From NCBI GenBank assembly GCA_000002435.2, contig CM018793.1: a stretch of DNA of 64,000 nucleotides. One strand, given 5' to 3'. Below the pieces are notes generated by a model. The model ran no database searches and was not told the DNA's origin. It saw nothing but the letters and a program-made list of their open reading frames with translations. Below, piece after piece: positions 3,344 to 63,002 of the stretch. This DNA is from Giardia intestinalis (Eukaryota). Position 1 is the stretch's first letter. Each line of letters begins with the position of its first letter. Both the position numbers and the translations under genes were made by a program.

Positions 3344-3350
3344 AGTAAAT
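3344..3350 (+). promoter_or_regulatory. AGTAAAT polyadenylation signal (Giardia AGTRAAY type) for RPL30
   Basis: Motif sits 22 nt downstream of the TAA at 3320-3322. Confidence 0.5.
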
Positions 3351-3363
3351 AACAGCTGCCGAG

Positions 3364-4755: not shown

Positions 4756-4757
4756 AT

Positions 4758-5201
4758 CTATTCCTCTGTAACATATTTCAACAGCTCATGGACCTTCTCC
4801 TCAGCGTCAGCACTTAGGGGGTCTCGCTCTACATCAAGATATGCCTTCATTTCTGCATCTGTCATATTGGAGAGAAGATCGGACACATATTGCGCACCAC
4901 CATCTAAGAGACTATTGAGTCCAATTCTTTCCGCTATCTCCAATGTAGATAGCAACTCTTCTTTGCTCAGCAATAAGAAGAACTGCTGCCGTAGCTCTTT
5001 GTTTTTCTGTGCGTCCTGCGATGATATGGACCCTTTTCCAAAAGTTGATATCCATTCCACGACGTGCTCGACTATGGCTGAGGGATAATCCAATTTGAGT
5101 TTTCCGTCCTCGACCAACTCCCTGTGATTAGCAAGAAGCGCGTCTAACTCTGCAGCCCCAACTTTCCATGTCTTTCCGTCCGATGCCACCAACTCTAGCA
5201 T
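4758..5201 (-). CDS. SKP1: SKP1 (SCF ubiquitin ligase adaptor)
   Basis: N-terminal LVASDGKTWKV... and C-terminal LLDGGAQYVSDLLSNMTDAEMKAYLDVERD resemble the SKP1 BTB/POZ and dimerisation regions. ATG at 5201. Confidence 0.7.
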   Translation of the reverse strand: MLELVASDGKTWKVGAAELDALLANHRELVEDGKLKLDYPSAIVEHVVEWISTFGKGSISSQDAQKNKELRQQFFLLLSKEELLSTLEIAERIGLNSLLDGGAQYVSDLLSNMTDAEMKAYLDVERDPLSADAEEKVHELLKYVTEE

Positions 5202-5303
5202 TAACGGTGCTAAATATTTCTATCAGTTTCACCAATTCACCAAAAATGATTATAAATTGCGTAAAGTAACGCTGTTTCAGTCGCTGCTTAGCCCTACTTT
5301 TAA

Positions 5304-6227: not shown

Positions 6228-6302
6228 CCCCAAAGTAAATTTCCTACAACTACTTCAGCTCCGGTGTCGCTTCAGAGGACGGAAGACCGGCTGGCACCGG
6301 CT

Positions 6303-8375
6303 ATGAGTTGGTGTACCCTTTATGCAGCGTCTCTAAAGCAGCGTGGACCAGATGTGGAAACGTGTTTAATTGTTCTTGCGCATAACTGTTATTCACGTCT
6401 TGAATATACGTTTAGAGTTCCTGTTATAAGCACTAGCCAGCATCTCCCAGGCATTCTTATAAAAGAGCTGTCTTCGCTTCTTCAAGCGGCTGTTGAATGG
6501 GCAGCAAACCTGATGAATGAAAATGCTCGCTTAGCTGCAATGGGCATAGGCGATGTGTACTACTTTAACCCAATAGCCATGGTTCTACACCCGCATCTTG
6601 ATGGACGAGTCATGACCACTTTAACTAAGATAGCATTGAAGCATGGTTGGGAAGTTCAAAGCCTTTCTACGCGACAAACCTTTAACCAAGAAACGCAACA
6701 CGTTAATAAACTAATCACACCAAAGGATCTCTGCCCACTCTGCTCCGCTCAACTGGGATGCATTCAGTACGATAATCTTGATAAGTTATTGAGCCACAGA
6801 CCCTTTCGAAAGCAATGTAATGCTATTTCTAGCGATACACCTCTTCGTGAAAGAGAACTAGAACGAATTGGGCGAGCAATCGCTAGTGATGGTATGCTTG
6901 CATTCAGACCTATTTTCCAGGATCCCCCTAGCATGAGCTTTTGCGCCAAGACACTAACAGAATTAATGATAGCGATTACAGAAGAGCAGGTATGCTCATG
7001 GAGTCCTTATGATGCCGCCCTATACTTTCTGCTTGATATACTTCAGGACTGCCGCTTGGATGTTCTTTATTTCCTTCATCAAGTTAAAAGCCTGTTTCCC
7101 GATAGCTTGTTTAAAACCATACTAATGTCTATGTCCTCTGACCTCCAGTTCTTACTCCCCCATCTTCCATCTCCGGAGCTTAACTACAATAGTGCCAAGT
7201 ACCTTGAGGAAGACATTAACAGCCATCTGTATACGTTACTTCAATCTCCGTCTCTGCGCATGACAATTTATGAATTTGCAGGATCATTTGTCAGGTTGCT
7301 TCCGTTTTACTTTAAATATGAGAATATTCATAGTACACAGCCCGACTCCAAAGGTTGTGCAAGGAATTATGGGAGTAGCAGCAATTTCTCTTCTTCTGTT
7401 TGTGCATTTGACACGCTACTTGATCTAGATGCATATCTGTCTGATTTGAATCTAGAGCAAAACTTGGCTTCTCCTCTCACTACTTCAAAGCACCACATGG
7501 CAAATAGATTTATCAACCAATCTGTTCCAGATTCTGTAACTAGCTCCTCGTATTTCAATATATGCCACGGTACACGCTTCTTAACCCTACTCAATTGTCT
7601 TACAATGCTGTTTCATGCAAAGCTCATCATGACGCAGATGTTGATGACTAGCTATGAGTCTATGTTTATCCTCCGCTCTTGTGCAGACAAAGACCCTGTT
7701 ATGGTGGAGTCTGTGATCAGGACCCAAATTCCCCTGTCTGTCTCAAGGCGCGAGTTTCTTATAAGGTTTCTAAAAGCCAACTATCTCATACAGAACATTA
7801 TTACTGACATCTGTTTCCTCAAAGATAACATTTTGGTAGAAACAGAGAGAGAGCGCTGTAAAGCTATGAAACTAATAGAGAAGAAACTAGAGGGGGATAC
7901 TGAGAGCTCTACTTCCGAGTCATGTGACAATCCTCAAGAGGTTAACGCTACTAATAAGGAAGGCGTGCTTGATAATACAGATACCGATCATGTCATAGAT
8001 GCCAGTCTTCATCTACTGGAAAGCATTGATACCTGCTCTAGTACTGGCGAAGATAGCTGTATCGAAGATGACGTACCAATAGACGAAAGCTTGTTTCGTG
8101 CTGCTATGCACCCTTCCAACTCGCTCCTTCCAGATTTACCTCTACAACCTGTTCAAGGATACCAGATCAAGCATAAAAATGTTCATAAAGTGGTCCAATC
8201 TGCGTTCAACTCTATCAAAAAGAGCAGCACGGAAAGAGAAAGAGTGGTGACTCGACCCCAGGGTGCAGTATCTGTCGCCTATGCCCGCAGTAATGCCATG
8301 CCTATCCTTCGTCCTGCCATTCAGGATAAGGCTATAAATGTGATATTAAATACTCTAAGGAACTGCTGTACATAG
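6303..8375 (+). CDS. Hypothetical protein (~690 aa), acidic C-terminal region
   Basis: The ORF-track start at 6264 is GTG. The first ATG is at 6303. Confidence 0.45.
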   Translation: MSWCTLYAASLKQRGPDVETCLIVLAHNCYSRLEYTFRVPVISTSQHLPGILIKELSSLLQAAVEWAANLMNENARLAAMGIGDVYYFNPIAMVLHPHLDGRVMTTLTKIALKHGWEVQSLSTRQTFNQETQHVNKLITPKDLCPLCSAQLGCIQYDNLDKLLSHRPFRKQCNAISSDTPLRERELERIGRAIASDGMLAFRPIFQDPPSMSFCAKTLTELMIAITEEQVCSWSPYDAALYFLLDILQDCRLDVLYFLHQVKSLFPDSLFKTILMSMSSDLQFLLPHLPSPELNYNSAKYLEEDINSHLYTLLQSPSLRMTIYEFAGSFVRLLPFYFKYENIHSTQPDSKGCARNYGSSSNFSSSVCAFDTLLDLDAYLSDLNLEQNLASPLTTSKHHMANRFINQSVPDSVTSSSYFNICHGTRFLTLLNCLTMLFHAKLIMTQMLMTSYESMFILRSCADKDPVMVESVIRTQIPLSVSRREFLIRFLKANYLIQNIITDICFLKDNILVETERERCKAMKLIEKKLEGDTESSTSESCDNPQEVNATNKEGVLDNTDTDHVIDASLHLLESIDTCSSTGEDSCIEDDVPIDESLFRAAMHPSNSLLPDLPLQPVQGYQIKHKNVHKVVQSAFNSIKKSSTERERVVTRPQGAVSVAYARSNAMPILRPAIQDKAINVILNTLRNCCT

Positions 8376-31913: not shown

Positions 31914-34900
31914 CTAACAACCTCTCCAAGTGCTGGTTTGGGTCTTCAGAAGATTTGCTATTTCAGTGTGCCCATTTTCTACAGCCAGCTTGTAGGCCGT
32001 CATACCATCATTGCGCACAAGATCTGCTTCCTTGTCGATCAATAGCTTCACTGCACGCATATTTCCCTGCTGTGCTGCAAACATAAGGGCTGACCAACCG
32101 TCCCTGTTCTGTTTTCCGCTTTGAATTAGGTAGGCTTTGATGTCGGCCTCATTTCCAAGTGCTACCGCTTGCATTAACCGTGTATTGCCGTACCAGTCGA
32201 CCAGGTCTGTCAGAATAACTTGTTGACCAATCGTATTAGGAATGGAGGTGCGAGGACTGGAGACAGGGGTAATTACATCGGGAAGATATCCAACAGAGCC
32301 CATAATTCCCTGCAATCGCTCTTCTTGTTCGTTATAGGCTTGTGATTTGGCTAAATATGCTTTTTTATATCGCTTTACCTCACCCCGCAAGTCTTCGACT
32401 TCTTGCACTAAAGCATCAGATAGACTTACATCTGAACCTAGGTGGTGAAGGTCAGTCAAGGTCAAGCCATTGCTAGGTAAAACAGGATTAGTCTTATCTG
32501 GTTCAGCAAATTGTTTGGCCTTTAGCTCAGCTATAGCGGACGATAAAGCAGAATTTTCAGCCTGAAGCCTCAAACGCGCATCCTCTGACTCACGTAACTG
32601 TATGGCTTTTCGAAGGTATCCTGATTTGTACTTAAATACTCTGTCCTTTAACTCTTTTTCCGATAACGGGTTGATGTTCGACCTAGCATAATCAGCTTTT
32701 GTAAGACGCAATAGAGCATTATCTTTGCGAAGATCCTCTAGTTCTCGTTGCAGTTCGGCAAGTGTGGGCTCGTGAGCCCTATCATGCAGGGATGACGAAT
32801 GTGTAGCAAGGAATAAGTCATCGACAGGTTTAGATTCATCGGAGACCTTCTGTGCCAGGACGTCCCCGGTGGGCTGGGAGAGCAGGGCCTCCTGGAGGCG
32901 CTTGATCTCGCGGTCCTTCTCGGCCAGGAGCGCGTCGTAGTCGGTGGTGGTCTGGGCCAGGCGCGGGCTCGCGGCTCCGCTAGCGACGGCGTCCTCGAGG
33001 CGCTTGCTGAGGCCTTCGTTCTCCTTGACCTTTTCTGCCAGTCGGCCAAGGGCGCTTTGGATTGCAGCCCGGTCTGCCTGCTCGTTGGCGCGCAGCTGCT
33101 GCCGGAGATCGTCCAGCGCCTGCTGGTGCCGGGCTTCGTCGGCTGCGCGAGCCTCTTCCGCGGCCCGGAGAAGGGCAGGATAGTCAATGGCGGGCTCGGC
33201 GGCTGCGGCCTGGAGGCGGGCAAGCTCTTCGTCACGGGCTTGGAGGGCCTCTTCAAGGGCCTGGATTCGGGCTGCTGCCCCGGGCTCTTCGGATTCGAGA
33301 GATCTCGGGTCCTGGGCGGCGAGCCTCTCCTGAAGCCTGGAGATCTCGGCGTTCTTCCGTTCGGCATCTGTCCTTGCTTCCGCAGCGGCATCTTCTAGAG
33401 CCCGGATGCGAGCCGTAAGTCCATCAATGGTAACTGGCAATTCGCCCTCGGCGCTTGCAGATTCCACACCCTGGACGATATTGCCCATGAGTTGTGTAAC
33501 CAGGCTGCCGTTGTCCTGAACCTTGTCGGCGAGCTGGTTGATAGCTGTTTGCAGACCATCTGCAGGAGACCGCGTTGCAGAAAGTGCGTCTCTGAGTTGG
33601 GCAATCTCGTCGTCCTTCTGTGCCAGGACGTCCCCGGTGGGCTGGGAGAGCAGGGCCTCCTGGAGGCGCTTGATCTCGCGGTCCTTCTCGGCCAGGAGCG
33701 CGTCGTAGTCGGTGGTGGTCTGGGCCAGGCGCGGGCTCGCGGCTCCGCTAGCGACGGCGTCCTCGAGGCGCTTGCTGAGGCCTTCGTTCTCCTTGACCTT
33801 TTCTGCCAGTCGGCCAAGGGCGCTTTGGATTGCAGCCCGGTCTGCCTGCTCGTTGGCGCGCAGCTGCTGCCGGAGATCGTCCAGCGCCTGCTGGTGCCGG
33901 GCTTCGTCGGCTGCGCGAGCCTCTTCCGCGGCCCGGAGAAGGGCAGGATAGTCAATGGCGGGCTCGGCGGCTGCGGCCTGGAGGCGGGCAAGCTCTTCGT
34001 CACGGGCTTGGAGGGCCTCTTCAAGGGCCTGGATTCGGGCTGCTGCCCCGGGCTCTTCGGATTCGAGAGATCTCGGGTCCTGGGCGGCGAGCCTCTCCTG
34101 AAGCCTGGAGATCTCGGCGTTCTTCCGTTCGGCATCTGTCCTTGCTTCCGCAGCGGCATCTTCTAGAGCCCGGATGCGAGCCGTAAGTCCATCAATGGTA
34201 ACTGGCAATTCGCCCTCGGCGCTTGCAGATTCCACACCCTGGACGATATTGCCCATGAGTTGTGTAACCAGGCTGCCGTTGTCCTGAACCTTGTCGGCGA
34301 GCTGGTTGATAGCTGTTTGCAGACCATCTGCAGGAGACCGCGTTGCAGAAAGTGCGTCTCTGAGTTGGGCAATCTCGTCGTCCTTCTGTGCCAGGACGTC
34401 CCCGGTGGGCTGGGAGAGCAGGGCCTCCTGGAGGCGCTTGATCTCGCGGTCCTTCTCGGCCAGGAGCGCGTCGTAGTCGGTGGTGGTCTGGGCCAGGCGC
34501 GGGCTCGCGGCTCCGCTAGCGACGGCGTCCTCGAGGCGCTTGCTGAGGCCTTCGTTCTCCTTGACCTTTTCTGCCAGTCGGCCAAGGGCGCTTTGGATTG
34601 CAGCCCGGTCTGCCTGCTCGTTGGCGCGCAGCTGCTGCCGGAGATCGTCCAGCGCCTGCTGGTGCCGGGCTTCGTCGGCTGCGCGAGCCTCTTCCGCGGC
34701 CCGGAGAAGGGCAGGATAGTCAATGGCGGGCTCGGCGGCTGCGGCCTGGAGGCGGGCAAGCTCTTCGTCACGGGCTTGGAGGGCCTCTTCAAGGGCCTGG
34801 ATTCGGGCTGCTGCCCCGGGCTCTTCGGATTCGAGAGATCTCGGGTCCTGGGCGGCGAGCCTCTCCTGAAGCCTGGAGATCTCGGCGTTCTTCCGTTCGG

Positions 34901-37900
34901 CATCTGTCCTTGCTTCCGCAGCGGCATCTTCTAGAGCCCGGATGCGAGCCGTAAGTCCATCAATGGTAACTGGCAATTCGCCCTCGGCGCTTGCAGATTC
35001 CACACCCTGGACGATATTGCCCATGAGTTGTGTAACCAGGCTGCCGTTGTCCTGAACCTTGTCGGCGAGCTGGTTGATAGCTGTTTGCAGACCATCTGCA
35101 GGAGACCGCGTTGCAGAAAGTGCGTCTCTGAGTTGGGCAATCTCGTCGTCCTTCTGTGCCAGGACGTCCCCGGTGGGCTGGGAGAGCAGGGCCTCCTGGA
35201 GGCGCTTGATCTCGCGGTCCTTCTCGGCCAGGAGCGCGTCGTAGTCGGTGGTGGTCTGGGCCAGGCGCGGGCTCGCGGCTCCGCTAGCGACGGCGTCCTC
35301 GAGGCGCTTGCTGAGGCCTTCGTTCTCCTTGACCTTTTCTGCCAGTCGGCCAAGGGCGCTTTGGATTGCAGCCCGGTCTGCCTGCTCGTTGGCGCGCAGC
35401 TGCTGCCGGAGATCGTCCAGCGCCTGCTGGTGCCGGGCTTCGTCGGCTGCGCGAGCCTCTTCCGCGGCCCGGAGAAGGGCAGGATAGTCAATGGCGGGCT
35501 CGGCGGCTGCGGCCTGGAGGCGGGCAAGCTCTTCGTCACGGGCTTGGAGGGCCTCTTCAAGGGCCTGGATTCGGGCTGCTGCCCCGGGCTCTTCGGATTC
35601 GAGAGATCTCGGGTCCTGGGCGGCGAGCCTCTCCTGAAGCCTGGAGATCTCGGCGTTCTTCCGTTCGGCATCTGTCCTTGCTTCCGCAGCGGCATCTTCT
35701 AGAGCCCGGATGCGAGCCGTAAGTCCATCAATGGTAACTGGCAATTCGCCCTCGGCGCTTGCAGATTCCACACCCTGGACGATATTGCCCATGAGTTGTG
35801 TAACCAGGCTGCCGTTGTCCTGAACCTTGTCGGCGAGCTGGTTGATAGCTGTTTGCAGACCATCTGCAGGAGACCGCGTTGCAGAAAGTGCGTCTCTGAG
35901 TTGGGCAATCTCGTCGTCCTTCTGTGCCAGGACGTCCCCGGTGGGCTGGGAGAGCAGGGCCTCCTGGAGGCGCTTGATCTCGCGGTCCTTCTCGGCCAGG
36001 AGCGCGTCGTAGTCGGTGGTGGTCTGGGCCAGGCGCGGGCTCGCGGCTCCGCTAGCGACGGCGTCCTCGAGGCGCTTGCTGAGGCCTTCGTTCTCCTTGA
36101 CCTTTTCTGCCAGTCGGCCAAGGGCGCTTTGGATTGCAGCCCGGTCTGCCTGCTCGTTGGCGCGCAGCTGCTGCCGGAGATCGTCCAGCGCCTGCTGGTG
36201 CCGGGCTTCGTCGGCTGCGCGAGCCTCTTCCGCGGCCCGGAGAAGGGCAGGATAGTCAATGGCGGGCTCGGCGGCTGCGGCCTGGAGGCGGGCAAGCTCT
36301 TCGTCACGGGCTTGGAGGGCCTCTTCAAGGGCCTGGATTCGGGCTGCTGCCCCGGGCTCTTCGGATTCGAGAGATCTCGGGTCCTGGGCGGCGAGCCTCT
36401 CCTGAAGCCTGGAGATCTCGGCGTTCTTCCGTTCGGCATCTGTCCTTGCTTCCGCAGCGGCATCTTCTAGAGCCCGGATGCGAGCCGTAAGTCCATCAAT
36501 GGTAACTGGCAATTCGCCCTCGGCGCTTGCAGATTCCACACCCTGGACGATATTGCCCATGAGTTGTGTAACCAGGCTGCCGTTGTCCTGAACCTTGTCG
36601 GCGAGCTGGTTGATAGCTGTTTGCAGACCATCTGCAGGAGACCGCGTTGCAGAAAGTGCGTCTCTGAGTTGGGCAATCTCGTCGTCCTTCTGTGCCAGGA
36701 CGTCCCCGGTGGGCTGGGAGAGCAGGGCCTCCTGGAGGCGCTTGATCTCGCGGTCCTTCTCGGCCAGGAGCGCGTCGTAGTCGGTGGTGGTCTGGGCCAG
36801 GCGCGGGCTCGCGGCTCCGCTAGCGACGGCGTCCTCGAGGCGCTTGCTGAGGCCTTCGTTCTCCTTGACCTTTTCTGCCAGTCGGCCAAGGGCGCTTTGG
36901 ATTGCAGCCCGGTCTGCCTGCTCGTTGGCGCGCAGCTGCTGCCGGAGATCGTCCAGCGCCTGCTGGTGCCGGGCTTCGTCGGCTGCGCGAGCCTCTTCCG
37001 CGGCCCGGAGAAGGGCAGGATAGTCAATGGCGGGCTCGGCGGCTGCGGCCTGGAGGCGGGCAAGCTCTTCGTCACGGGCTTGGAGGGCCTCTTCAAGGGC
37101 CTGGATTCGGGCTGCTGCCCCGGGCTCTTCGGATTCGAGAGATCTCGGGTCCTGGGCGGCGAGCCTCTCCTGAAGCCTGGAGATCTCGGCGTTCTTCCGT
37201 TCGGCATCTGTCCTTGCTTCCGCAGCGGCATCTTCTAGAGCCCGGATGCGAGCCGTAAGTCCATCAATGGTAACTGGCAATTCGCCCTCGGCGCTTGCAG
37301 ATTCCACACCCTGGACGATATTGCCCATGAGTTGTGTAACCAGGCTGCCGTTGTCCTGAACCTTGTCGGCGAGCTGGTTGATAGCTGTTTGCAGACCATC
37401 TGCAGGAGACCGCGTTGCAGAAAGTGCGTCTCTGAGTTGGGCAATCTCGTCGTCCTTCTGTGCCAGGACGTCCCCGGTGGGCTGGGAGAGCAGGGCCTCC
37501 TGGAGGCGCTTGATCTCGCGGTCCTTCTCGGCCAGGAGCGCGTCGTAGTCGGTGGTGGTCTGGGCCAGGCGCGGGCTCGCGGCTCCGCTAGCGACGGCGT
37601 CCTCGAGGCGCTTGCTGAGGCCTTCGTTCTCCTTGACCTTTTCTGCCAGTCGGCCAAGGGCGCTTTGGATTGCAGCCCGGTCTGCCTGCTCGTTGGCGCG
37701 CAGCTGCTGCCGGAGATCGTCCAGCGCCTGCTGGTGCCGGGCTTCGTCGGCTGCGCGAGCCTCTTCCGCGGCCCGGAGAAGGGCAGGATAGTCAATGGCG
37801 GGCTCGGCGGCTGCGGCCTGGAGGCGGGCAAGCTCTTCGTCACGGGCTTGGAGGGCCTCTTCAAGGGCCTGGATTCGGGCTGCTGCCCCGGGCTCTTCGG

Positions 37901-40900
37901 ATTCGAGAGATCTCGGGTCCTGGGCGGCGAGCCTCTCCTGAAGCCTGGAGATCTCGGCGTTCTTCCGTTCGGCATCTGTCCTTGCTTCCGCAGCGGCATC
38001 TTCTAGAGCCCGGATGCGAGCCGTAAGTCCATCAATGGTAACTGGCAATTCGCCCTCGGCGCTTGCAGATTCCACACCCTGGACGATATTGCCCATGAGT
38101 TGTGTAACCAGGCTGCCGTTGTCCTGAACCTTGTCGGCGAGCTGGTTGATAGCTGTTTGCAGACCATCTGCAGGAGACCGCGTTGCAGAAAGTGCGTCTC
38201 TGAGTTGGGCAATCTCGTCGTCCTTCTGTGCCAGGACGTCCCCGGTGGGCTGGGAGAGCAGGGCCTCCTGGAGGCGCTTGATCTCGCGGTCCTTCTCGGC
38301 CAGGAGCGCGTCGTAGTCGGTGGTGGTCTGGGCCAGGCGCGGGCTCGCGGCTCCGCTAGCGACGGCGTCCTCGAGGCGCTTGCTGAGGCCTTCGTTCTCC
38401 TTGACCTTTTCTGCCAGTCGGCCAAGGGCGCTTTGGATTGCAGCCCGGTCTGCCTGCTCGTTGGCGCGCAGCTGCTGCCGGAGATCGTCCAGCGCCTGCT
38501 GGTGCCGGGCTTCGTCGGCTGCGCGAGCCTCTTCCGCGGCCCGGAGAAGGGCAGGATAGTCAATGGCGGGCTCGGCGGCTGCGGCCTGGAGGCGGGCAAG
38601 CTCTTCGTCACGGGCTTGGAGGGCCTCTTCAAGGGCCTGGATTCGGGCTGCTGCCCCGGGCTCTTCGGATTCGAGAGATCTCGGGTCCTGGGCGGCGAGC
38701 CTCTCCTGAAGCCTGGAGATCTCGGCGTTCTTCCGTTCGGCATCTGTCCTTGCTTCCGCAGCGGCATCTTCTAGAGCCCGGATGCGAGCCGTAAGTCCAT
38801 CAATGGTAACTGGCAATTCGCCCTCGGCGCTTGCAGATTCCACACCCTGGACGATATTGCCCATGAGTTGTGTAACCAGGCTGCCGTTGTCCTGAACCTT
38901 GTCGGCGAGCTGGTTGATAGCTGTTTGCAGACCATCTGCAGGAGACCGCGTTGCAGAAAGTGCGTCTCTGAGTTGGGCAATCTCGTCGTCCTTCTGTGCC
39001 AGGACGTCCCCGGTGGGCTGGGAGAGCAGGGCCTCCTGGAGGCGCTTGATCTCGCGGTCCTTCTCGGCCAGGAGCGCGTCGTAGTCGGTGGTGGTCTGGG
39101 CCAGGCGCGGGCTCGCGGCTCCGCTAGCGACGGCGTCCTCGAGGCGCTTGCTGAGGCCTTCGTTCTCCTTGACCTTTTCTGCCAGTCGGCCAAGGGCGCT
39201 TTGGATTGCAGCCCGGTCTGCCTGCTCGTTGGCGCGCAGCTGCTGCCGGAGATCGTCCAGCGCCTGCTGGTGCCGGGCTTCGTCGGCTGCGCGAGCCTCT
39301 TCCGCGGCCCGGAGAAGGGCAGGATAGTCAATGGCGGGCTCGGCGGCTGCGGCCTGGAGGCGGGCAAGCTCTTCGTCACGGGCTTGGAGGGCCTCTTCAA
39401 GGGCCTGGATTCGGGCTGCTGCCCCGGGCTCTTCGGATTCGAGAGATCTCGGGTCCTGGGCGGCGAGCCTCTCCTGAAGCCTGGAGATCTCGGCGTTCTT
39501 CCGTTCGGCATCTGTCCTTGCTTCCGCAGCGGCATCTTCTAGAGCCCGGATGCGAGCCGTAAGTCCATCAATGGTAACTGGCAATTCGCCCTCGGCGCTT
39601 GCAGATTCCACACCCTGGACGATATTGCCCATGAGTTGTGTAACCAGGCTGCCGTTGTCCTGAACCTTGTCGGCGAGCTGGTTGATAGCTGTTTGCAGAC
39701 CATCTGCAGGAGACCGCGTTGCAGAAAGTGCGTCTCTGAGTTGGGCAATCTCGTCGTCCTTCTGTGCCAGGACGTCCCCGGTGGGCTGGGAGAGCAGGGC
39801 CTCCTGGAGGCGCTTGATCTCGCGGTCCTTCTCGGCCAGGAGCGCGTCGTAGTCGGTGGTGGTCTGGGCCAGGCGCGGGCTCGCGGCTCCGCTAGCGACG
39901 GCGTCCTCGAGGCGCTTGCTGAGGCCTTCGTTCTCCTTGACCTTTTCTGCCAGTCGGCCAAGGGCGCTTTGGATTGCAGCCCGGTCTGCCTGCTCGTTGG
40001 CGCGCAGCTGCTGCCGGAGATCGTCCAGCGCCTGCTGGTGCCGGGCTTCGTCGGCTGCGCGAGCCTCTTCCGCGGCCCGGAGAAGGGCAGGATAGTCAAT
40101 GGCGGGCTCGGCGGCTGCGGCCTGGAGGCGGGCAAGCTCTTCGTCACGGGCTTGGAGGGCCTCTTCAAGGGCCTGGATTCGGGCTGCTGCCCCGGGCTCT
40201 TCGGATTCGAGAGATCTCGGGTCCTGGGCGGCGAGCCTCTCCTGAAGCCTGGAGATCTCATCGTCCTTTCGCGCTAATACGTCACTGATGGGTTGAGAGA
40301 GAAGCAAATCATTCAAGTTCATTTTGGAGGATTGAATATCATATGCAGGAGTAGGAGCCATTCCCAACATAACTTCATCTAGTAAGTTGTGGTTTGGCGT
40401 ATAAGGAATTGAGGAGGATATATTGATACACAGGTTTCTCAACCGATCGATTTCTTTATCGCGCTCTTTGAGAAGCTTATGAAATTGGGCCCTTATTTCA
40501 TTGACATCATCTGAAGAAAAGTCAGTATCAGGCATAGAAAGAGGAGCTAGAGACACACCGTATGTTGAGATAAGAAGCTCCCTAAAGCAGTTCATTCCAT
40601 CCCTAATATCGATTGGATACTCGGTATTCTTAAAAGAGTGGTAATCGGCGAACGTCTGATAAATGTTCAACAGGTCGTCACGCAAATCTTCTTTATGATC
40701 ACCAGAAGTAAGTGCTGTATCGACTTTATCAGAATAATCCATCAGCAGTTTTCGACAAACCAGCGGGGCAAGAGTAGGCTGCACACATGTCCCATACACC
40801 GGTACGGATGTTCGACTAAGAAATTGCAATTCAACCTCATCCTGGTTTGTGAGGGTGAAGTCTGTTATGCGCTTTGTTCCACATCTATTTGTCGATGTCA

Positions 40901-41828
40901 CGAACTGCTCAAGTATCTGCTTAGCATATGCAAGGTATTCTCTGATATCAGTGTCGGCATTGGAAGCTGCATCACCTAATAAGCGTTGACAGCAGAAGAT
41001 AGCCCATGTATAATTTTCTTCTACGAGATTCTGCGCTCTGTAACGCGTACAGGCAAGAGAGGCTATATTGATGTAGAGCAAATCTGATCGTATGTCGGCA
41101 AGATCAAGAATAGATTCGCTTATAGCGAAAAGGCCTTTACAAACAAGACTATCTGGCTGCGAACGATGTACAGCAACCTTTTTATAAAGCTTCGAAGCCT
41201 GCTGCCTGTACCTGGTCACCGAGTCATGTTCTTCGGTTAATTCTGGGCTAGTTGAGATAAGGTCCATGGCGAGTGCCCTGCTAAAGTGTTCTAGAGCCTG
41301 TAATACGTCACGGTTTAAGAGGGTTCCATCTAAAGTGGAAAACGTGCTATCGACTTGCTGCAATGTTTCAGAAATCATGTTTGCCGCTTGCAAAATATAT
41401 CCTACTGAATGGTGAATAGCTTTGGCATTGGAGGCAGCGAGTGTGTAACACGCAGACACGGTGTTATATAACAGTGCTACAATATCCAGTAAAACACTAT
41501 TTGCAATTATGGTGAGTGAAGATCCAGTGGACCATATCAGCATGGCCTGTTCAGAGGGCGCTTTAATTTCGGGGCTCTCCCAGGGAAGCATGAACAAGAG
41601 ATCCTTGGCAAGAAGATAGCATTCATAGACAGTATCCATATGAATAGACATGTCAAAGCTGGCTAATATCTTCCGCTTTTCCTTCAACCTTCTAATTACA
41701 TTAGAGATGAGTTCCACAGCCCCTGAAGGGAATATTTGGACCGTAGCTTCTAGCACTGAATAAAAGGACCCATCGTCCTGGGGTTCTAATGGGGGAAGAG
41801 AAGGAATGACGGGCGGTGGCGCGTTCAT
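31914..41828 (-). CDS. Giant coiled-coil protein (~3304 aa) with ~9.6 identical 256-aa repeats and C-terminal ankyrin repeats. The N-terminal ~450 aa form a globular, possibly Bro1-like domain
   Basis: The ORF-track start at 41831 is TTG. The ATG at 41828 is preceded by AAAAATTTAAAAAATTCGG. C-terminal NTRLMQAVALGN...GWSALMFAAQQGNMRAVKLL are ankyrin repeats. Confidence 0.7.
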   Translation of the reverse strand: MNAPPPVIPSLPPLEPQDDGSFYSVLEATVQIFPSGAVELISNVIRRLKEKRKILASFDMSIHMDTVYECYLLAKDLLFMLPWESPEIKAPSEQAMLIWSTGSSLTIIANSVLLDIVALLYNTVSACYTLAASNAKAIHHSVGYILQAANMISETLQQVDSTFSTLDGTLLNRDVLQALEHFSRALAMDLISTSPELTEEHDSVTRYRQQASKLYKKVAVHRSQPDSLVCKGLFAISESILDLADIRSDLLYINIASLACTRYRAQNLVEENYTWAIFCCQRLLGDAASNADTDIREYLAYAKQILEQFVTSTNRCGTKRITDFTLTNQDEVELQFLSRTSVPVYGTCVQPTLAPLVCRKLLMDYSDKVDTALTSGDHKEDLRDDLLNIYQTFADYHSFKNTEYPIDIRDGMNCFRELLISTYGVSLAPLSMPDTDFSSDDVNEIRAQFHKLLKERDKEIDRLRNLCINISSSIPYTPNHNLLDEVMLGMAPTPAYDIQSSKMNLNDLLLSQPISDVLARKDDEISRLQERLAAQDPRSLESEEPGAAARIQALEEALQARDEELARLQAAAAEPAIDYPALLRAAEEARAADEARHQQALDDLRQQLRANEQADRAAIQSALGRLAEKVKENEGLSKRLEDAVASGAASPRLAQTTTDYDALLAEKDREIKRLQEALLSQPTGDVLAQKDDEIAQLRDALSATRSPADGLQTAINQLADKVQDNGSLVTQLMGNIVQGVESASAEGELPVTIDGLTARIRALEDAAAEARTDAERKNAEISRLQERLAAQDPRSLESEEPGAAARIQALEEALQARDEELARLQAAAAEPAIDYPALLRAAEEARAADEARHQQALDDLRQQLRANEQADRAAIQSALGRLAEKVKENEGLSKRLEDAVASGAASPRLAQTTTDYDALLAEKDREIKRLQEALLSQPTGDVLAQKDDEIAQLRDALSATRSPADGLQTAINQLADKVQDNGSLVTQLMGNIVQGVESASAEGELPVTIDGLTARIRALEDAAAEARTDAERKNAEISRLQERLAAQDPRSLESEEPGAAARIQALEEALQARDEELARLQAAAAEPAIDYPALLRAAEEARAADEARHQQALDDLRQQLRANEQADRAAIQSALGRLAEKVKENEGLSKRLEDAVASGAASPRLAQTTTDYDALLAEKDREIKRLQEALLSQPTGDVLAQKDDEIAQLRDALSATRSPADGLQTAINQLADKVQDNGSLVTQLMGNIVQGVESASAEGELPVTIDGLTARIRALEDAAAEARTDAERKNAEISRLQERLAAQDPRSLESEEPGAAARIQALEEALQARDEELARLQAAAAEPAIDYPALLRAAEEARAADEARHQQALDDLRQQLRANEQADRAAIQSALGRLAEKVKENEGLSKRLEDAVASGAASPRLAQTTTDYDALLAEKDREIKRLQEALLSQPTGDVLAQKDDEIAQLRDALSATRSPADGLQTAINQLADKVQDNGSLVTQLMGNIVQGVESASAEGELPVTIDGLTARIRALEDAAAEARTDAERKNAEISRLQERLAAQDPRSLESEEPGAAARIQALEEALQARDEELARLQAAAAEPAIDYPALLRAAEEARAADEARHQQALDDLRQQLRANEQADRAAIQSALGRLAEKVKENEGLSKRLEDAVASGAASPRLAQTTTDYDALLAEKDREIKRLQEALLSQPTGDVLAQKDDEIAQLRDALSATRSPADGLQTAINQLADKVQDNGSLVTQLMGNIVQGVESASAEGELPVTIDGLTARIRALEDAAAEARTDAERKNAEISRLQERLAAQDPRSLESEEPGAAARIQALEEALQARDEELARLQAAAAEPAIDYPALLRAAEEARAADEARHQQALDDLRQQLRANEQADRAAIQSALGRLAEKVKENEGLSKRLEDAVASGAASPRLAQTTTDYDALLAEKDREIKRLQEALLSQPTGDVLAQKDDEIAQLRDALSATRSPADGLQTAINQLADKVQDNGSLVTQLMGNIVQGVESASAEGELPVTIDGLTARIRALEDAAAEARTDAERKNAEISRLQERLAAQDPRSLESEEPGAAARIQALEEALQARDEELARLQAAAAEPAIDYPALLRAAEEARAADEARHQQALDDLRQQLRANEQADRAAIQSALGRLAEKVKENEGLSKRLEDAVASGAASPRLAQTTTDYDALLAEKDREIKRLQEALLSQPTGDVLAQKDDEIAQLRDALSATRSPADGLQTAINQLADKVQDNGSLVTQLMGNIVQGVESASAEGELPVTIDGLTARIRALEDAAAEARTDAERKNAEISRLQERLAAQDPRSLESEEPGAAARIQALEEALQARDEELARLQAAAAEPAIDYPALLRAAEEARAADEARHQQALDDLRQQLRANEQADRAAIQSALGRLAEKVKENEGLSKRLEDAVASGAASPRLAQTTTDYDALLAEKDREIKRLQEALLSQPTGDVLAQKDDEIAQLRDALSATRSPADGLQTAINQLADKVQDNGSLVTQLMGNIVQGVESASAEGELPVTIDGLTARIRALEDAAAEARTDAERKNAEISRLQERLAAQDPRSLESEEPGAAARIQALEEALQARDEELARLQAAAAEPAIDYPALLRAAEEARAADEARHQQALDDLRQQLRANEQADRAAIQSALGRLAEKVKENEGLSKRLEDAVASGAASPRLAQTTTDYDALLAEKDREIKRLQEALLSQPTGDVLAQKDDEIAQLRDALSATRSPADGLQTAINQLADKVQDNGSLVTQLMGNIVQGVESASAEGELPVTIDGLTARIRALEDAAAEARTDAERKNAEISRLQERLAAQDPRSLESEEPGAAARIQALEEALQARDEELARLQAAAAEPAIDYPALLRAAEEARAADEARHQQALDDLRQQLRANEQADRAAIQSALGRLAEKVKENEGLSKRLEDAVASGAASPRLAQTTTDYDALLAEKDREIKRLQEALLSQPTGDVLAQKVSDESKPVDDLFLATHSSSLHDRAHEPTLAELQRELEDLRKDNALLRLTKADYARSNINPLSEKELKDRVFKYKSGYLRKAIQLRESEDARLRLQAENSALSSAIAELKAKQFAEPDKTNPVLPSNGLTLTDLHHLGSDVSLSDALVQEVEDLRGEVKRYKKAYLAKSQAYNEQEERLQGIMGSVGYLPDVITPVSSPRTSIPNTIGQQVILTDLVDWYGNTRLMQAVALGNEADIKAYLIQSGKQNRDGWSALMFAAQQGNMRAVKLLIDKEADLVRNDGMTAYKLAVENGHTEIANLLKTQTSTWRGC
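32853..40258. repeat. Perfect tandem array, 768-bp unit x about 9.6 copies (intragenic). GC-rich, and encodes the 256-aa coiled-coil unit
   Basis: Identical ORF-track peptides recur at 768-bp offsets (33395, 34163, ..., 39539). Sequence lines are identical between copies. Confidence 0.9.
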
Positions 41829-41911
41829 CAATCTCCGAATTTTTTAAATTTTTACCGAACAAATTCAAAAGACGTCACTAATGATTTACTGAAAAGGCCA
41901 TAAGGCATCCC

Positions 41912-58036: not shown

Positions 58037-58594
58037 ATGCTTATCTGGGCACTGCTGACCCTTAGCCTGTCGCTTATGGTGAAAATAGGCCCTGGCGAAA
58101 CCCGCTGTTTTAGAGATCAGGTGAAGAAAGACGATCGCCTCTCCATCAACGTGCATGTCTCTGGGGGAAACCGTCTCTCCTTTACTCTCCGGGCCCCGAA
58201 CCAAGGGATCCTTAAGCAAGATGCGTTAGTAAAAAGTTGGAGTTATGCGCTTTCGAAGACAGAGGCAGGCCACTACGAATTCTGCGCCTCTTCTCCTAGC
58301 AATAACAAGCCTGCAAACATGACTCTCTTCTGGCTATCGCAGCCCAATGAGCCGACAGACACACCCTCTGGCATACCAGGGATCCTCAATCAGACGTCAG
58401 GGGTGGTAAAGCACCTGGTTGCAAACCAACGATTTACACAAACAGCCGAAAATTCTCACAAGCAGCTGATCAGTTCTCTCTCCGGCAGCCTCTCGTTTTG
58501 GATGGCGGCTAAGATTGTTGTCGTTGCCACGTGCATCGCGTACCAGATGGTCGTAACCAAAAAACACTTTTCCAAACGCAGGACCGCGGTTTAA
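58037..58594 (+). CDS. p24/emp24 (GOLD domain) cargo receptor
   Basis: Signal peptide MLIWALLTLSLSL. GOLD-type motifs RCFRDQV and GHYEFCASS. C-terminal TM helix plus short basic tail. ATG at 58037, and AGTAAAT 4 nt after the stop. Confidence 0.6.
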   Translation: MLIWALLTLSLSLMVKIGPGETRCFRDQVKKDDRLSINVHVSGGNRLSFTLRAPNQGILKQDALVKSWSYALSKTEAGHYEFCASSPSNNKPANMTLFWLSQPNEPTDTPSGIPGILNQTSGVVKHLVANQRFTQTAENSHKQLISSLSGSLSFWMAAKIVVVATCIAYQMVVTKKHFSKRRTAV

Positions 58595-58621
58595 ATAAGT
58601 AAATCCGTGAATAGAGTGCCA

Positions 58622-59644
58622 ATGACTCAGGATTTGCTCCATGCAATACTTCAGGACAATGCGGTAGGAAGTAAAGACACGGAACTGGAAAATCTTAGGC
58701 ACCGCTGTGAAGCCCTGGAGGCAGCTGTGCTATCTCTCGCGCTTGGAATCTATGACGTGCAGGACTACATATCCTTATATGCCAAGTACCCTAAGCTGCG
58801 GCGAAAGCTAAGGAAGTGTGGACATAACATGCACGTCCCCTTGACAAAATACCATGTCGCCCAGTTCAAAAAGGGAGGCCCACCAATTCAAATAGATACG
58901 CAGTACCTAGTAGAGAGTGCTATCTCGCTGGAAAAGTCACACGTGCTAGATCTCTTCAAGCAGGGATACCATACTGTTGCGGGGTCAATCCACACAGAGT
59001 ATGAGGCGATTGTCCGCCGAAGCTTGTACTACAAGTTCCTCGAGCAAGCGACCAAGATTCTGCTGATGTTTCTTGGCATAATAATCTCTGCTTTTGGCCT
59101 TCTCGTTCATATAGTACGTAGACCAAAGAAAGCCATCAAATTCATCCTAAGGATTGACATATCCTTCACGGAGAAAGTTCACCGCATTGTCCACACATGG
59201 TTCCCGATGTTGGTAAACCCGGAGCGCTATTTGAGAGATGTACATAACGACCCCAACCATAGAGTGCTTGTTGAAATATCAAACACATTGGAGAGCAACT
59301 GGTGGAACGCTGATATGGGGTCTTACAGCGAAGGTGAACACTTTGACGACACTATAAGCGACATGATAAGCGAGGAAAGTGGGGCTCCGCAACCGTCAGC
59401 TGATGCCCCCGAGTCCCAGTCCATATGTGGAGCAAGTCCGATTGAGGGGACACTTCACTCTATCGTATCTCCAAGGATCGAACCCTTAGTTATTGACGTT
59501 CTCACTGACGTGCGTCCATCCCGGAATGACATTCCAGGTGAGCCACCTAGCAGCCTCACTACCCAGGAAGGAAGAAGCACATATGGACAGTGGGCAGTAA
59601 TTATAGTTGCAGTAATTTTGGCCATTGTGTATATCATGCTGTGA
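58622..59644 (+). CDS. Hypothetical membrane protein with an internal TM and a C-terminal tail-anchor TM
   Basis: The ORF-track start at 58607 is GTG. The ATG at 58622 is preceded by TTTAAATAAGTAAATCC. C-terminal WAVIIVAVILAIVYIML. Confidence 0.45.
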   Translation: MTQDLLHAILQDNAVGSKDTELENLRHRCEALEAAVLSLALGIYDVQDYISLYAKYPKLRRKLRKCGHNMHVPLTKYHVAQFKKGGPPIQIDTQYLVESAISLEKSHVLDLFKQGYHTVAGSIHTEYEAIVRRSLYYKFLEQATKILLMFLGIIISAFGLLVHIVRRPKKAIKFILRIDISFTEKVHRIVHTWFPMLVNPERYLRDVHNDPNHRVLVEISNTLESNWWNADMGSYSEGEHFDDTISDMISEESGAPQPSADAPESQSICGASPIEGTLHSIVSPRIEPLVIDVLTDVRPSRNDIPGEPPSSLTTQEGRSTYGQWAVIIVAVILAIVYIML

Positions 59645-59678
59645 GGGGCGTAACGTCTGTGCGTACGATACAGCCAAC

Positions 59679-62600
59679 CTACTCTGCCAAAAAAGCTAAC
59701 ATATAGGCCTCGTCTTCCCTATTTCTTGCTTGTTTCTCCGCTGATCGGAAGGTCATTTTGGCAAGTATGCGTAGCGCAGATTGGAAGCGGAATCCGTGAT
59801 TGGGTAGCTTGCATGTGTGCAGAAAGAATCGAAACAAGGATACAAAGAATAGGAACAGATTGCTCTCTTCCCACTGTAACGTTGTGTAGAAAATGCCCGT
59901 TGCTTGCTTGCGAAGAGAGTCTAAGTCTGTGGGCATACCTGCAGCTATAACAGAGTCTATTATGTAGTAACTATATTCAGGGAATATCCCGTTTGGCAGG
60001 CCAAATGCACAGTCCACTAACAGCTCTGCGACAGAGGCAGGATGTATGTACAGAGGGATGCGAGCCCAGTCACCCTTTGTGAGATGAATGTATAACTTAT
60101 TACTATCTTCAGCTGGCCCCAAAGAGACGAACAGGCTCCTTGTGCAATAGTATCTAAAGGACTGAAGCTCAGTTTTCAGTTTCTCTAGTAGTGGGTCTAA
60201 TACGCTTACCTCGCCTGACTGTGACATGTGTGCCCTTAAGCTCTCGATGCCAGTGATACAGAGGTGATAGAATAATAAGTAAAGCTTTTCTTTTTCTCTT
60301 TCATTGTCTATTGCAGAAAACTTCCGTGCTTGTGGTACAGGATCTGCTAAGCGATGTTGCTCAAGAAAAGAGCTAAGGGATTGGGTGGTAGGCCCAGTGT
60401 GTATGTGCGGGAAAACTGTCGCTATAAATCGAAGTGGAGTAGACGGGAGCTCCATATTGGTATCTTTGGCTTTCAAGGTGTCATACAGACCCAGCAAAAT
60501 GTCGTCTAACTGCTTAGTTTTAAAGGTGCAGTTCGAGGCCTGGAACGCTTGCACGGCACTGACATCCTGATTAGATGGAGATCCACTGGATAAAAATTCC
60601 TCAAAGTAATTAGCGATATTGATAAAATAACCAGGTACTAGAGCACTGCTTTTTTTAACGAGATCATGTAGAGGCTTAGAGAAAAGCGATTCTTTCAGTC
60701 CAAGGTATTCGATTTTGCAATTAATGGTTTCTGTAGCAATGACGTTGTTCCGTGATAATGTAGTTGCCCTTCCAGAGACAAAGCAGAGGCTAATCGTGAA
60801 CGATTGGAGGGATATCTTCTCGTCGATTATTTGCCTGAGAATAAAAGCTCGCTGACTTTCAAAGCTCTCGAGAGACAAGGTATCAGGTTTTTCAACGGTC
60901 TGCATCAAGTGGCGGATGTACGACGCCTGGACATTCGGTGGAGTATCCAAAAAGTAACGGAATCGGTGTAGCAACACAATCTCCCCTTGAGTCATGGCCT
61001 TGAGGGTAAAGCATGCCGGCCTCATATATATCCACGGTGGGGTAGTGATGGGGTCTAGCACAATATTCAATGAGGAAATGGGATGGTCATTTCGCAAAGG
61101 AAGAGGATGGGCTGTTTCCATTCCATATGAAACTCTTCCAAAGTCTAGTGTAGACTCAAGCAACGTGTAGCGTGGCTGCAGCTCCGTAGTAAAGATGGGG
61201 AGTCTACCAAGGATCTTAGCTTGTTCTGCCTTGAGTTTAGCGTCATCTAGAACTCGAACATTGATCGTGCTGAGGAGACAGACCGGATGATGATCACTGA
61301 ACTCAACTGCAGAAACAGACATGTACCCAATCGGATTGATGAGAGTGTCCTGAGAGAGCCCTCGGAATAAGATTCTGTCACAATATGCAGGAACCCTAGG
61401 TTTGCTTGCCTCAGGGTCAACTTCATAGTTTGGAATAGCGGTAGTATTACTGTTAGAAGGATGGCTTAACTGAGAACTTAGTGATGGAGCAGAGGAAACA
61501 GTGTCTACACATGCCTGGGGGTCCGGGGTAGTTCTTTCAGTAGCAGGCTCCGTAGAAACTACATTGAGGACATCAAAAAGATTGAGGGAACCACCAGGAA
61601 TGAGTTGCATGGGCTGACACGGAGCAGCTGGCGGCTGCTCCTGTTTTGGACCTTGCTTAGACTGAGCCAACTTCTTGGGCTTGCTTTTCCCCTTTCCTTT
61701 TTCCCCTATAAGTATTTTGTATGTAGGATTAAAGGAGATATCCATTTCTTTGAACCCATAAAGGTAGTTACATGGATCAAATGGATAGCTAAGATATTCT
61801 TCATAATAATTTGTATTTCCGGCCAGTGTTGGAGGGGTTACCTCAACATCATCGTCATCTGATTCTATGTCGGCGCCACTTACGGCCAAAGCGGCAACAG
61901 CAGCCGTTGCAGCGACATTCTGAACAAAAAACGTTGCGTCATCCTCTGCATCGACGTCGTCACCTACCCTCATGTTTTCATTAGCATACGTTGGAGTGTA
62001 CGAGCTACTGCTAAGCGCCCGTAACTGCATTGAGAGCTGATCAATTCGCAAAAATGTCCGTCGACCAACTTCACTGTCGGCCAAGAAGTGCTCTAGGATA
62101 AGGTGTGGCTTTGTTGAGAAGGTGTGCAAGCGATAGTTCAAGTCTCCTAAGAGGAATATCACGTCATGGCCCCTTAGAAGAGACGGAAACTTGGGGGTAA
62201 GGTTAGAATCGAAGTTACAATTGGCGAGACAATTAGTAAAGTTATAGTTTGGATTGACAATGGGATGATTTAGTTCATCCTCAATAATGTAGTCATCCAA
62301 GATTTCTACTCCGGGCTTGCTGTCTCGATGGTACAGTTCGAAAATAGTAGGCCCCCTCGGATCCTTGGGGGAGGTCGACATGCTAAGACGTGAAAGCACT
62401 TCGTAAATATCTCTGTTTCGTTTCTTAGGTCCATCAGGGGTTCTATTGGCTGACAGGTGAAGATTGCAGAAAAGAATTCTAGTGTCATAGAGCCTTATAG
62501 TTGCGGCAAGCCCACCTTTATTTCCACCTCGGTTCCACAAGCCCACACCGCATGCCTTAAATCCTTCCACGACGGCGCTTGCCGGTGGGCAGGTGATGCT

Positions 62601-63002
62601 TTTGTGCAGACCAATGACAAGTAAGAGGCCCATCATTTGTTTGTAGGACAATACATACTGGTCTCCAAGTACTGAAGCCACAGCATCAACCCAGGGCTGT
62701 GCACGACTGGTCTCGCCGACCATAAGGGCCTTTGCGGACATGTCGACTTCCTGAAAACCGATTGCATACACAAGAGGGCACGATGGCGCTGGAGCATCAG
62801 GAACTTGGTGCCTTGAAAAGTAGTGAAGCCATGGGCGCAGAAAAGACGAGTCCCCCGGAAACTTCCTGTTACCAACGTTAAAAGTCCCCGCAAATACCGG
62901 AAGTGGAAGATAGCTACTGAACTTTCCGAGCGAGAGCAGTAGCTGGCGGTTCACATAGGACGTCGGATCATAGAAGTGAGAGATATCAAACGACTCTCGC
63001 AT
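59679..63002 (-). CDS. Inositol polyphosphate 5-phosphatase (IPPc/EEP family) with large insertions and a long C-terminal extension
   Basis: Catalytic motifs FAGTFNVGN, GFQEVD, FCNLHLSAN, HDVIFLLGDLNYRL, FNPTYK and PAYCDRILF. ATG at 63002. Confidence 0.65.
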   Translation of the reverse strand: MRESFDISHFYDPTSYVNRQLLLSLGKFSSYLPLPVFAGTFNVGNRKFPGDSSFLRPWLHYFSRHQVPDAPAPSCPLVYAIGFQEVDMSAKALMVGETSRAQPWVDAVASVLGDQYVLSYKQMMGLLLVIGLHKSITCPPASAVVEGFKACGVGLWNRGGNKGGLAATIRLYDTRILFCNLHLSANRTPDGPKKRNRDIYEVLSRLSMSTSPKDPRGPTIFELYHRDSKPGVEILDDYIIEDELNHPIVNPNYNFTNCLANCNFDSNLTPKFPSLLRGHDVIFLLGDLNYRLHTFSTKPHLILEHFLADSEVGRRTFLRIDQLSMQLRALSSSSYTPTYANENMRVGDDVDAEDDATFFVQNVAATAAVAALAVSGADIESDDDDVEVTPPTLAGNTNYYEEYLSYPFDPCNYLYGFKEMDISFNPTYKILIGEKGKGKSKPKKLAQSKQGPKQEQPPAAPCQPMQLIPGGSLNLFDVLNVVSTEPATERTTPDPQACVDTVSSAPSLSSQLSHPSNSNTTAIPNYEVDPEASKPRVPAYCDRILFRGLSQDTLINPIGYMSVSAVEFSDHHPVCLLSTINVRVLDDAKLKAEQAKILGRLPIFTTELQPRYTLLESTLDFGRVSYGMETAHPLPLRNDHPISSLNIVLDPITTPPWIYMRPACFTLKAMTQGEIVLLHRFRYFLDTPPNVQASYIRHLMQTVEKPDTLSLESFESQRAFILRQIIDEKISLQSFTISLCFVSGRATTLSRNNVIATETINCKIEYLGLKESLFSKPLHDLVKKSSALVPGYFINIANYFEEFLSSGSPSNQDVSAVQAFQASNCTFKTKQLDDILLGLYDTLKAKDTNMELPSTPLRFIATVFPHIHTGPTTQSLSSFLEQHRLADPVPQARKFSAIDNEREKEKLYLLFYHLCITGIESLRAHMSQSGEVSVLDPLLEKLKTELQSFRYYCTRSLFVSLGPAEDSNKLYIHLTKGDWARIPLYIHPASVAELLVDCAFGLPNGIFPEYSYYIIDSVIAAGMPTDLDSLRKQATGIFYTTLQWEESNLFLFFVSLFRFFLHTCKLPNHGFRFQSALRILAKMTFRSAEKQARNREDEAYMLAFLAE

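Follow-up and report, generated by a model that had tools for sequence, protein, structure and literature searches.

Giardia intestinalis very probably encodes an OCRL/INPP5B-type inositol polyphosphate 5-phosphatase with a divergent ASH and RhoGAP-like tail

Towards the end of the 64,000 nucleotides of Giardia intestinalis DNA analysed here (contig CM018793.1 of assembly GCA_000002435.2, "the window" below) lies a gene for an inositol 5-phosphatase, and the question that it raises concerns what follows the catalytic domain. The original prediction, made from the letters of the DNA, saw there some 550 residues without any recognisable domain and took them for a possible parasite-specific regulatory or targeting module. 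We find that the gene is very probably Giardia's orthologue in the OCRL/INPP5B/Dd5P4 subfamily of inositol polyphosphate 5-phosphatases, with its parts in the order found in that family, i.e., 5-phosphatase, linker helix, ASH domain and a RhoGAP-like domain that lacks the arginine finger. These parts are the following:

59679..63002, minus strand: complete coding sequence from the open reading frame (ORF) listing, 1107 residues plus stop, probable Giardia OCRL-type inositol polyphosphate 5-phosphatase
61248..62897, minus strand: 5-phosphatase catalytic domain of the EEP fold, residues 36-585, from PF22669 and profile matches to the Protein Data Bank (PDB)
61173..61247, minus strand: linker helix (predicted), residues 586-610, joining the catalytic domain to ASH
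60699..61172, minus strand: ASH domain (MSP/PapD-like beta-sandwich), residues 611-768, from hhalign, Foldseek and the profile match to 3qis
59682..60218, minus strand: RhoGAP-like domain, residues 929-1107, without arginine finger (F958-V959 in LFVSLGP)

The ORF is as first described, 1107 codons without interruption and exactly 59679..63002 on the minus strand. Its ATG is the first start codon following an in-frame stop, which leaves no room for an N-terminal extension or a PH domain; the sequence ahead of it is AT-rich and initiator-like, and the shorter ORFs in other frames within the gene are its shadows. The protein shares 98% identity, over 100% of its length, with a G. duodenalis "Type II inositol-1,4,5-trisphosphate 5-phosphatase" and is 89% identical to an assemblage E (P15) protein named "Inositol 5-phosphatase 4", a name that stems from Dd5P4. 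Further relatives are two more Giardia-like sequences (76 and 72%), a G. muris protein (35%) and two sequences from public assemblies (about 30-38% in the aligned parts). Eight aligned relatives of the Giardia lineage underlie the full-length profile and all statements on invariant catalytic residues, and seven relatives the profile of the tail (A2); identities calculated per segment among relatives are consistent with purifying selection on all parts. The gene is already known, being annotated as a 5-phosphatase with names of the INPP5B/Dd5P4 type, and the precomputed Pfam annotation of the protein covers the catalytic domain only. Its gene ID is probably GL50803_14787, and GL50803_14787, a protein of the same name, has been found up-regulated in late encystation by a transcriptome study (PMC8700996). 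Giardia has been said to have OCRL-like proteins (PMC6743453), and a 2026 paper on GlRac does not mention the phosphatase.

The catalytic domain bears out the proposal of an inositol 5-phosphatase with an intact active site. It matches Pfam PF22669 (Exo_endo_phos2, the 5-phosphatase family) with 106.7 bits against a cut-off of 27 (E=2e-30). When the profile of eight relatives was compared with the PDB, the best solved structure was INPP5B (3n9v, E=3e-41), with OCRL (4cmn, E=2e-38), the fission-yeast synaptojanin catalytic domain (1i9y, E=1e-25), human synaptojanin-1 (E=2e-15), SHIP1/2 (E about 1e-9 to 1e-7) and INPP5E (4.5e-8) behind it. In this ranking, which is one of match scores and not a tree, INPP5B/OCRL are ahead of the other 5-phosphatases by many orders of magnitude. 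The signature motifs are present in the correct order: GTFNV (residues 39-43), GFQEV (82-86), GNKGG (160-164), NLHLSA (180-185), GDLNYR (286-291), NPTYK (425-429), KPRVPAYCDRIL (534-545) and SDHHPV (569-574), and both IPPc signatures, GDxN[FY]R and P[AS][WY][CT]DR[IV]L, are found (GDLNYR 286-291 and PAYCDRIL 538-545). Invariant in all eight relatives are N42 (GTFNV), E85 (GFQEV), N161/K162 (GNKGG), N180/H182 (NLHLSA), D287/N289/R291 (GDLNYR), Y428/K429 (NPTYK), D570/H571 (SDHHPV) and, in the 534-545 motif, K534/R536 and D542/R543; N42, E85, H182, D287/N289 and D570/H571 align with their INPP5B/OCRL counterparts. Substituted catalytic residues, which would have spoken against the prediction, were looked for on the alignment and none was found. 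By analogy with the fission-yeast synaptojanin and INPP5B structures we take E85 to hold the metal, and from solved enzymes we assume that the scissile phosphate would be the target of H571 and the D287/N289 motif, and that Y428/K429 together with K534/R536 would contact the 4-phosphate. PAYCDRILF had been thought to be the end of the domain, but the domain extends ca. 40 residues more, via SDHHPV, to about residue 585, so that the real tail is of ca. 520 rather than ca. 550 residues.

The closest matches outside the lineage all combine PF22669 with PF21310 (OCRL-like ASH) and PF00620 (RhoGAP), and for this reason an ASH plus RhoGAP hypothesis was tested on the tail. The tail profile of seven relatives matched eleven OCRL-family tails at 96.2% (E=2e-9), collinear over both domains. 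Taken separately with hhalign, the ASH part matched the OCRL-family ASH with 97.3% probability (E=1.6e-11) and the helical part the OCRL-family RhoGAP with 95.4% (E=1.8e-8), and in the swapped controls these values were 0.2% (E=0.36) for the ASH part against RhoGAP and 0.1% (E=0.61) for the helical part against ASH. Residues 929-1107 alone matched RhoGAP at 97.4% (E=1.5e-11, hhalign). The full-length profile matched the crystal sequence of the OCRL ASH-RhoGAP tandem, 3qis (E=6e-6); the HMMER search of the tail profile against PDB sequences gave weak matches (FAP47 0.0017, OCRL 3qis 0.32), suggestive and insufficient. A first AlphaFold model, of residues 585-1107 from 7 sequences, was mediocre (predicted local distance difference test, pLDDT, 64.6) and usable for the ASH part only. 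In it a long helix is followed by a beta-sandwich, which has a helical excursion, and then by a helical region, and Foldseek against the PDB returned ciliary ASH-repeat proteins, VAP/MSP domains, PapD-like chaperones and OCRL 3qis (E 1e-5), which places OCRL among the top ASH structure matches of the tail. On this model the fold of residues 611-768 is that of ASH/MSP domains, with a helical expansion at about 683-726. The linker, predicted as a helix at residues 3-23 of AlphaFold model m30ba45f1ca4c, aligns with the beginning of OCRL 3qis and also with that of OCRL-family C-termini, and 3qbt (OCRL 540-678, helix plus ASH) has a template modelling score (TM-score) of 0.60-0.68 against the model by Foldseek. 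The Pfam hints of Cep192_D2 and DUF3114 were discarded as noise.

For the RhoGAP-like domain the most independent test came from HMMER, with which 1.84 billion representative proteins were searched exhaustively, using a profile of residues 780-1107 that contains no ASH residues. The search gave eight matches: five family members, one repeat artefact (P0032, rejected as repeat/low-complexity) and two proteins, P0033 and P0034 (whole-library E 9e-6 and 2e-5), both OCRL-like with ASH and RhoGAP and both matched inside their Pfam RhoGAP domain. A second model, of residues 770-1107, was built from an alignment of seven lineage sequences, including that of the window, and seven OCRL-family RhoGAP cores, from which OCRL helix A had been cut since MAFFT misplaced it; it reached a pLDDT of 82.2 and a predicted TM-score (pTM) of 0.82. 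Its geometrically sensible Foldseek matches are RhoGAP/BH domains, with which ca. 165 of the 338 modelled residues align, and among the top RhoGAP-fold matches OCRL has the highest sequence identity. As the alignment held OCRL-family rows, this model is not fully independent of the sequence-based call. The domain was set at about 929-1107 because of the helix order and the boundaries of the P0033/P0034 matches; helix A was placed at 929-954 because hhalign, those boundaries and the helix order of the model agree on a contiguous domain from ca. 929. Two candidates for helix A picked by eye, at 788-803 (LVPGYFINIANYFEEF, with "AFQASN" as the finger site) and at about 850 (ELPSTPLRFIATVF), were dropped in favour of 929-954. 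Another sequence, P0031 (283 residues), matches the last ca. 200 residues and then reads past the stop in another frame ("...AYMLAFFGRVGWLYRTHRRYAPHS...", about 59640..59700), and is thus a read-through fragment of the phosphatase gene; it suggests that the T-run just ahead of the stop differs in length in some assembly, or else a gene-calling artefact.

At the finger loop the alignment reads LFQTPG in OCRL, LFSTPG in P0007, LFVIGG in P0009, LFVESG in P0034 and LFVSLGP in Giardia, so that the finger column holds V959 in Giardia and Q in OCRL, and no arginine finger of the GxFRxSG type is found. Two OCRL-family proteins, P0017 and P0020, have LFRVPF at the corresponding place, which fits the LFVSLGP site being the finger position. 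By the canonical criterion the Giardia RhoGAP-like domain would be inactive, a reading of the residues that sets it apart from canonical RhoGAPs (p50RhoGAP, p190, Myo9b, chimaerin; PF00620, a family that the window protein itself does not reach in Pfam). The OCRL/INPP5B RhoGAP-like domain has been described as inactive too (PMC6563779), and in TbOCRL of Trypanosoma brucei (Tb09.160.4180), an OCRL-family protein of an Excavata protist that we compared by its published description, the RhoGAP arginine is changed from R to Q and the domain is proposed to bind, not to inactivate, a Rho-like GTPase (PMC3214021). In TbOCRL, however, the RhoGAP domain is seen by domain searches (PMC3214021), whereas the Giardia tail is missed by Pfam and has an extra helical module.

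The tail is thus not devoid of recognisable domains, since ASH and RhoGAP-like domains were found by hhalign, by profile searches and in the predicted structures; that it seemed so is understandable because plain Pfam scans miss both. The view of a parasite-specific C-terminus is for the most part wrong: ca. two thirds of it is the ASH plus RhoGAP-like tandem by which the pan-eukaryotic OCRL/INPP5B/Dd5P4 subfamily is defined, and what is specific to the lineage in it is the module at residues 770-928 and the ASH expansion. The targeting or regulatory role that had been suggested for the tail fits, by analogy, the role of the OCRL tandem. Human OCRL1/INPP5B (4cmn, 3mtc/3n9v, 2qv2, 3qis, 3qbt) have the same ordered core and the closest solved catalytic domains, with a sequence identity to the Giardia tail of about 12-20%. 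The Giardia protein differs from them in having no N-terminal PH domain (35 residues stand ahead of the catalytic domain), in catalytic-domain inserts of 56, 81 and 89 residues and in its expanded ASH; and in solved OCRL nothing comes between the ASH and the RhoGAP-like domain, whereas in Giardia a module of ca. 160 residues separates them. Dictyostelium Dd5P4, which binds F&H-motif adaptors, is a protist OCRL-type enzyme, to which the likeness is drawn through the description of the family core in PMC6743453.

Several points weigh against the assignment to the OCRL subfamily, or against reading too much function into it. Pfam alone finds neither ASH nor RhoGAP in the tail, giving sub-threshold hints only: in scans of the whole protein and of its C-terminal half the best single-sequence E values were 0.0052 (RhoGAP) and 0.13 (OCRL-like ASH), each in one of the seven relatives. 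The Foldseek E values of the 770-1107 model are non-significant (best 0.079). Several elements known from the animal proteins are missing in Giardia, namely the PH domain, the clathrin boxes and AP-2 motif of OCRL and the CAAX of INPP5B, and a motif scan of the Giardia protein found no clathrin box, AP-2 (FxDxF/DPF), NPF, 14-3-3, F..H or CAAX motif; this is no argument against membership because these elements lie outside the family's conserved core, which consists of the 5-phosphatase and the ASH-RhoGAP tandem (PMC6743453). The third catalytic-domain insert (89 residues) splits the halves of the 4-phosphate-binding element, and a change of specificity could be the consequence. Finally, the substrate, partners and site of action of the protein are all inferred from the family.

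What distinguishes the Giardia protein from other members of the family is a set of additions:

62199..62366, minus strand: first insertion (Ins1), residues 213-268, length 56 residues, ahead of the GDLNYR strand; conserved, in all lineage relatives
61770..62012, minus strand: second insertion (Ins2), residues 331-411, 81 residues that separate the DQL helix from the FNPTYK strand; acidic, Ala-rich
61431..61697, minus strand: third insertion (Ins3), residues 436-524, 89 residues, a P/S/Q/K-rich low-complexity loop from PTYK to KPRVPAYCDR
60219..60695, minus strand: seven-helix lineage-specific module, residues 770-928, between ASH and the RhoGAP-like domain

The insertions were defined by alignment to six OCRL-family catalytic domains. 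The original prediction had one long insertion between GDLNYRL and FNPTYK; its acidic Ala-rich stretch does lie there, within the ca. 80-residue insert 331-411, and the insertions number three. Ins1 has four residues (T219, Y224, G231 and D236) invariant in all eight sequences and is 70-98% identical within the G. duodenalis complex, where this equals the conservation of the core. Ins2 has a net charge of -16. It also contains the most hydrophobic 19-mer of the protein, ATFFVQNVAATAAVAALAV (residues 356-374, 61881..61937, minus strand), with a Kyte-Doolittle mean of 1.69, slightly over the classical transmembrane threshold, and Asp/Glu clusters on its flanks; this segment is kept only in the G. 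duodenalis complex and is absent in G. muris and the two metagenomic relatives, and as a transmembrane helix it is topologically implausible because it lies in the middle of the catalytic domain. Of all segments Ins3 is the least conserved: in the G. duodenalis complex its identity is 57-76%, in G. muris it is short, and P0007 lacks it. Inside it there is a short recurring island, NLFDVL (residues 474-479, 61566..61583, minus strand; DLFSVL in G. muris, NFFGAL in P0006), which could be a short linear interaction motif; it fits neither the clathrin-box nor the AP-2 consensus patterns that were scanned. Both G. muris and the pair of metagenomic relatives have Ins1 and Ins2 as well. The low-complexity inserts are most likely loop expansions that are tolerated, as is typical of proteins in Giardia; additional surfaces for interaction may be provided by the conserved Ins1 and by the 770-928 module. 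P0006, one of the two relatives from public assemblies, with 1166 residues (gene 3001-6501 of locus L001, on a gene-dense 108-kb contig of Logan SRR31929897), has Ins1, Ins2, a module of the 770-928 type and the RhoGAP-like domain; its source is probably an unsequenced Giardia relative or another diplomonad.

The 770-928 module (ca. 160 residues) is confidently predicted as seven helices that, to judge by the high pTM of the model, would pack with the RhoGAP-like domain as one unit. It is kept in all four divergent lineages, with P790, Y799 and F800 invariant. There was no Pfam match to it at E<=10, the exhaustive search of 1.84 billion proteins reported no match outside the family, and the idea of a cryptic duplicate of RhoGAP or ASH was rejected at a profile probability below 1%. 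A tentative and rather unlikely possibility is that it is a diplomonad-specific docking domain, to which Ins1 might contribute, replacing the PH domain, the clathrin/AP-2 motifs and possibly F&H-adaptor binding. If this were true, it would link hydrolysis of phosphatidylinositol 4,5-bisphosphate (PI(4,5)P2) to the peripheral vacuoles, which are unusual endocytic organelles, or to encystation vesicle traffic, and its docking partners would be without counterpart elsewhere among eukaryotes.

In OCRL, the linker helix and ASH serve as the binding site of Rabs, and the RhoGAP-like domain as that of Rac/Cdc42 and endocytic adaptors. By analogy with the family, the Giardia enzyme would remove the 5-phosphate from PI(4,5)P2 and/or phosphatidylinositol 3,4,5-trisphosphate, possibly also from soluble inositol tris- or tetrakisphosphate, and its intact active-site residues point to Mg2+-dependent catalysis of the EEP type. 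The helix-ASH-RhoGAP-like tandem would be a non-catalytic docking platform taking the phosphatase to membranes via small GTPases or adaptors, with a putative Rab bound to helix and ASH and a Rho-family GTPase or adaptor to the RhoGAP-like domain. The likely site of action would be the endocytic/secretory membrane system of Giardia. A role of phosphoinositides in uptake at the peripheral vacuoles has been reported (summarised in PMC8700996).

Other explanations of the locus have to be set against this one, one being that the last ca. 550 residues, related to no known domain, form a new regulatory or targeting module specific to the parasite. Pfam has nothing above threshold in the tail and residues 770-928 are without detectable relative or fold match, as this would predict, but the ASH and RhoGAP-like domains were seen by three independent routes and in the OCRL order, and just ca. 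160 of the ca. 520 tail residues are left unassigned; we consider the idea improbable and largely refuted. A different role could be imagined for the RhoGAP-like domain, namely that it uses a non-canonical catalytic residue such as R955, three positions before F958. All lineage relatives have a basic residue (K/R) at this site (TRSLF / MKNVF / LKNML / MRLLF) and TbOCRL is proposed to bind a Rho-like GTPase (PMC3214021). Val nevertheless occupies the canonical finger position, and in most OCRL-family members, regarded as inactive, the column is Q, F, T, N, P, V or I (PMC6563779); moreover, on our reading of the alignment, the conserved Asn of the OCRL helix ("VSANMLATLF") faces a Ser in Giardia ("FRFQSALRIL"), and a separate putative Giardia RhoGAP, DHA2_13550, has been annotated (PMC12506490). 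Catalysis by R955 is therefore very unlikely.

The catalytic half of the OCRL-type protein invites doubts of its own. About 225 inserted residues break up the fold and Ins3 splits the PTYK...K-x-R element, so that the protein might be a pseudo-phosphatase scaffold, disabled by its three large insertions. Against this, the catalytic and substrate-binding residues are all invariant in lineages at 30-38% overall identity, the core segments are the best-conserved parts, and the insert sites are variable loops elsewhere in the family (P0016 and P0023 are also longer at the Ins1 site), all of which makes a disabled enzyme highly improbable. The insertions might also not be coding at all, i.e., they could be unrecognised introns or assembly artefacts, for which the unusual composition of Ins2 and Ins3 could be invoked. 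Giardia genes have very few introns. The single frame runs without interruption, the inserts are in frame in four lineages of the G. duodenalis complex at 57-98% amino acid identity with length differences that keep the frame, and Ins1 and Ins2 also occur in G. muris and the two metagenomic relatives; because the inserts stay in frame in every lineage, such an origin is disfavoured, and we give it next to no chance.

The Giardia protein is, then, of the conserved eukaryotic OCRL architecture, neither a parasite-specific invention nor a new kind of system, and lineage-specific are only the three inserts, the ASH expansion and the 770-928 module. For a protein of a known kind, the assignment of ASH and RhoGAP-like domains and the map of what the lineage has added appear to supply detail that is new. 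They provide direct evidence for the published but undocumented claim of a Giardia OCRL-like protein, and they set a domain map for a Giardia phosphoinositide phosphatase known in databases by its catalytic domain only. Finding the 5-phosphatase-ASH-RhoGAP-like core in a very reduced, fast-evolving eukaryote fits an ancient origin of this core. In practical terms the map shows where constructs should begin and end (catalytic core, three inserts that can be removed, 770-1107 unit) and singles out residues 770-928 as the piece worth study for PI(4,5)P2 turnover at the endocytic compartments of Giardia or in encystation.

Downstream of the phosphatase gene, and convergent with it, lies a plus-strand ORF of 345 residues (58607..59644) with two hydrophobic stretches, the two stop codons being 34 nucleotides apart. 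Next to it, another plus-strand ORF (58037..58594, 185 residues) is hydrophobic at its N-terminus and has a second hydrophobic stretch at its C-terminal end, with a basic tail (KKHFSKRRTAV) behind it; by eye the protein resembles a cargo receptor of the p24/emp24 type. Elsewhere in the window, an ORF of 3305 residues (31914..41831, minus strand) contains about 9 tandem copies of a 768-nucleotide (256-residue) repeat, visible as nested shadow ORFs at strict spacing (33395, 34163, 34931 ... 39539) on both strands, and looks like a giant repeat protein.

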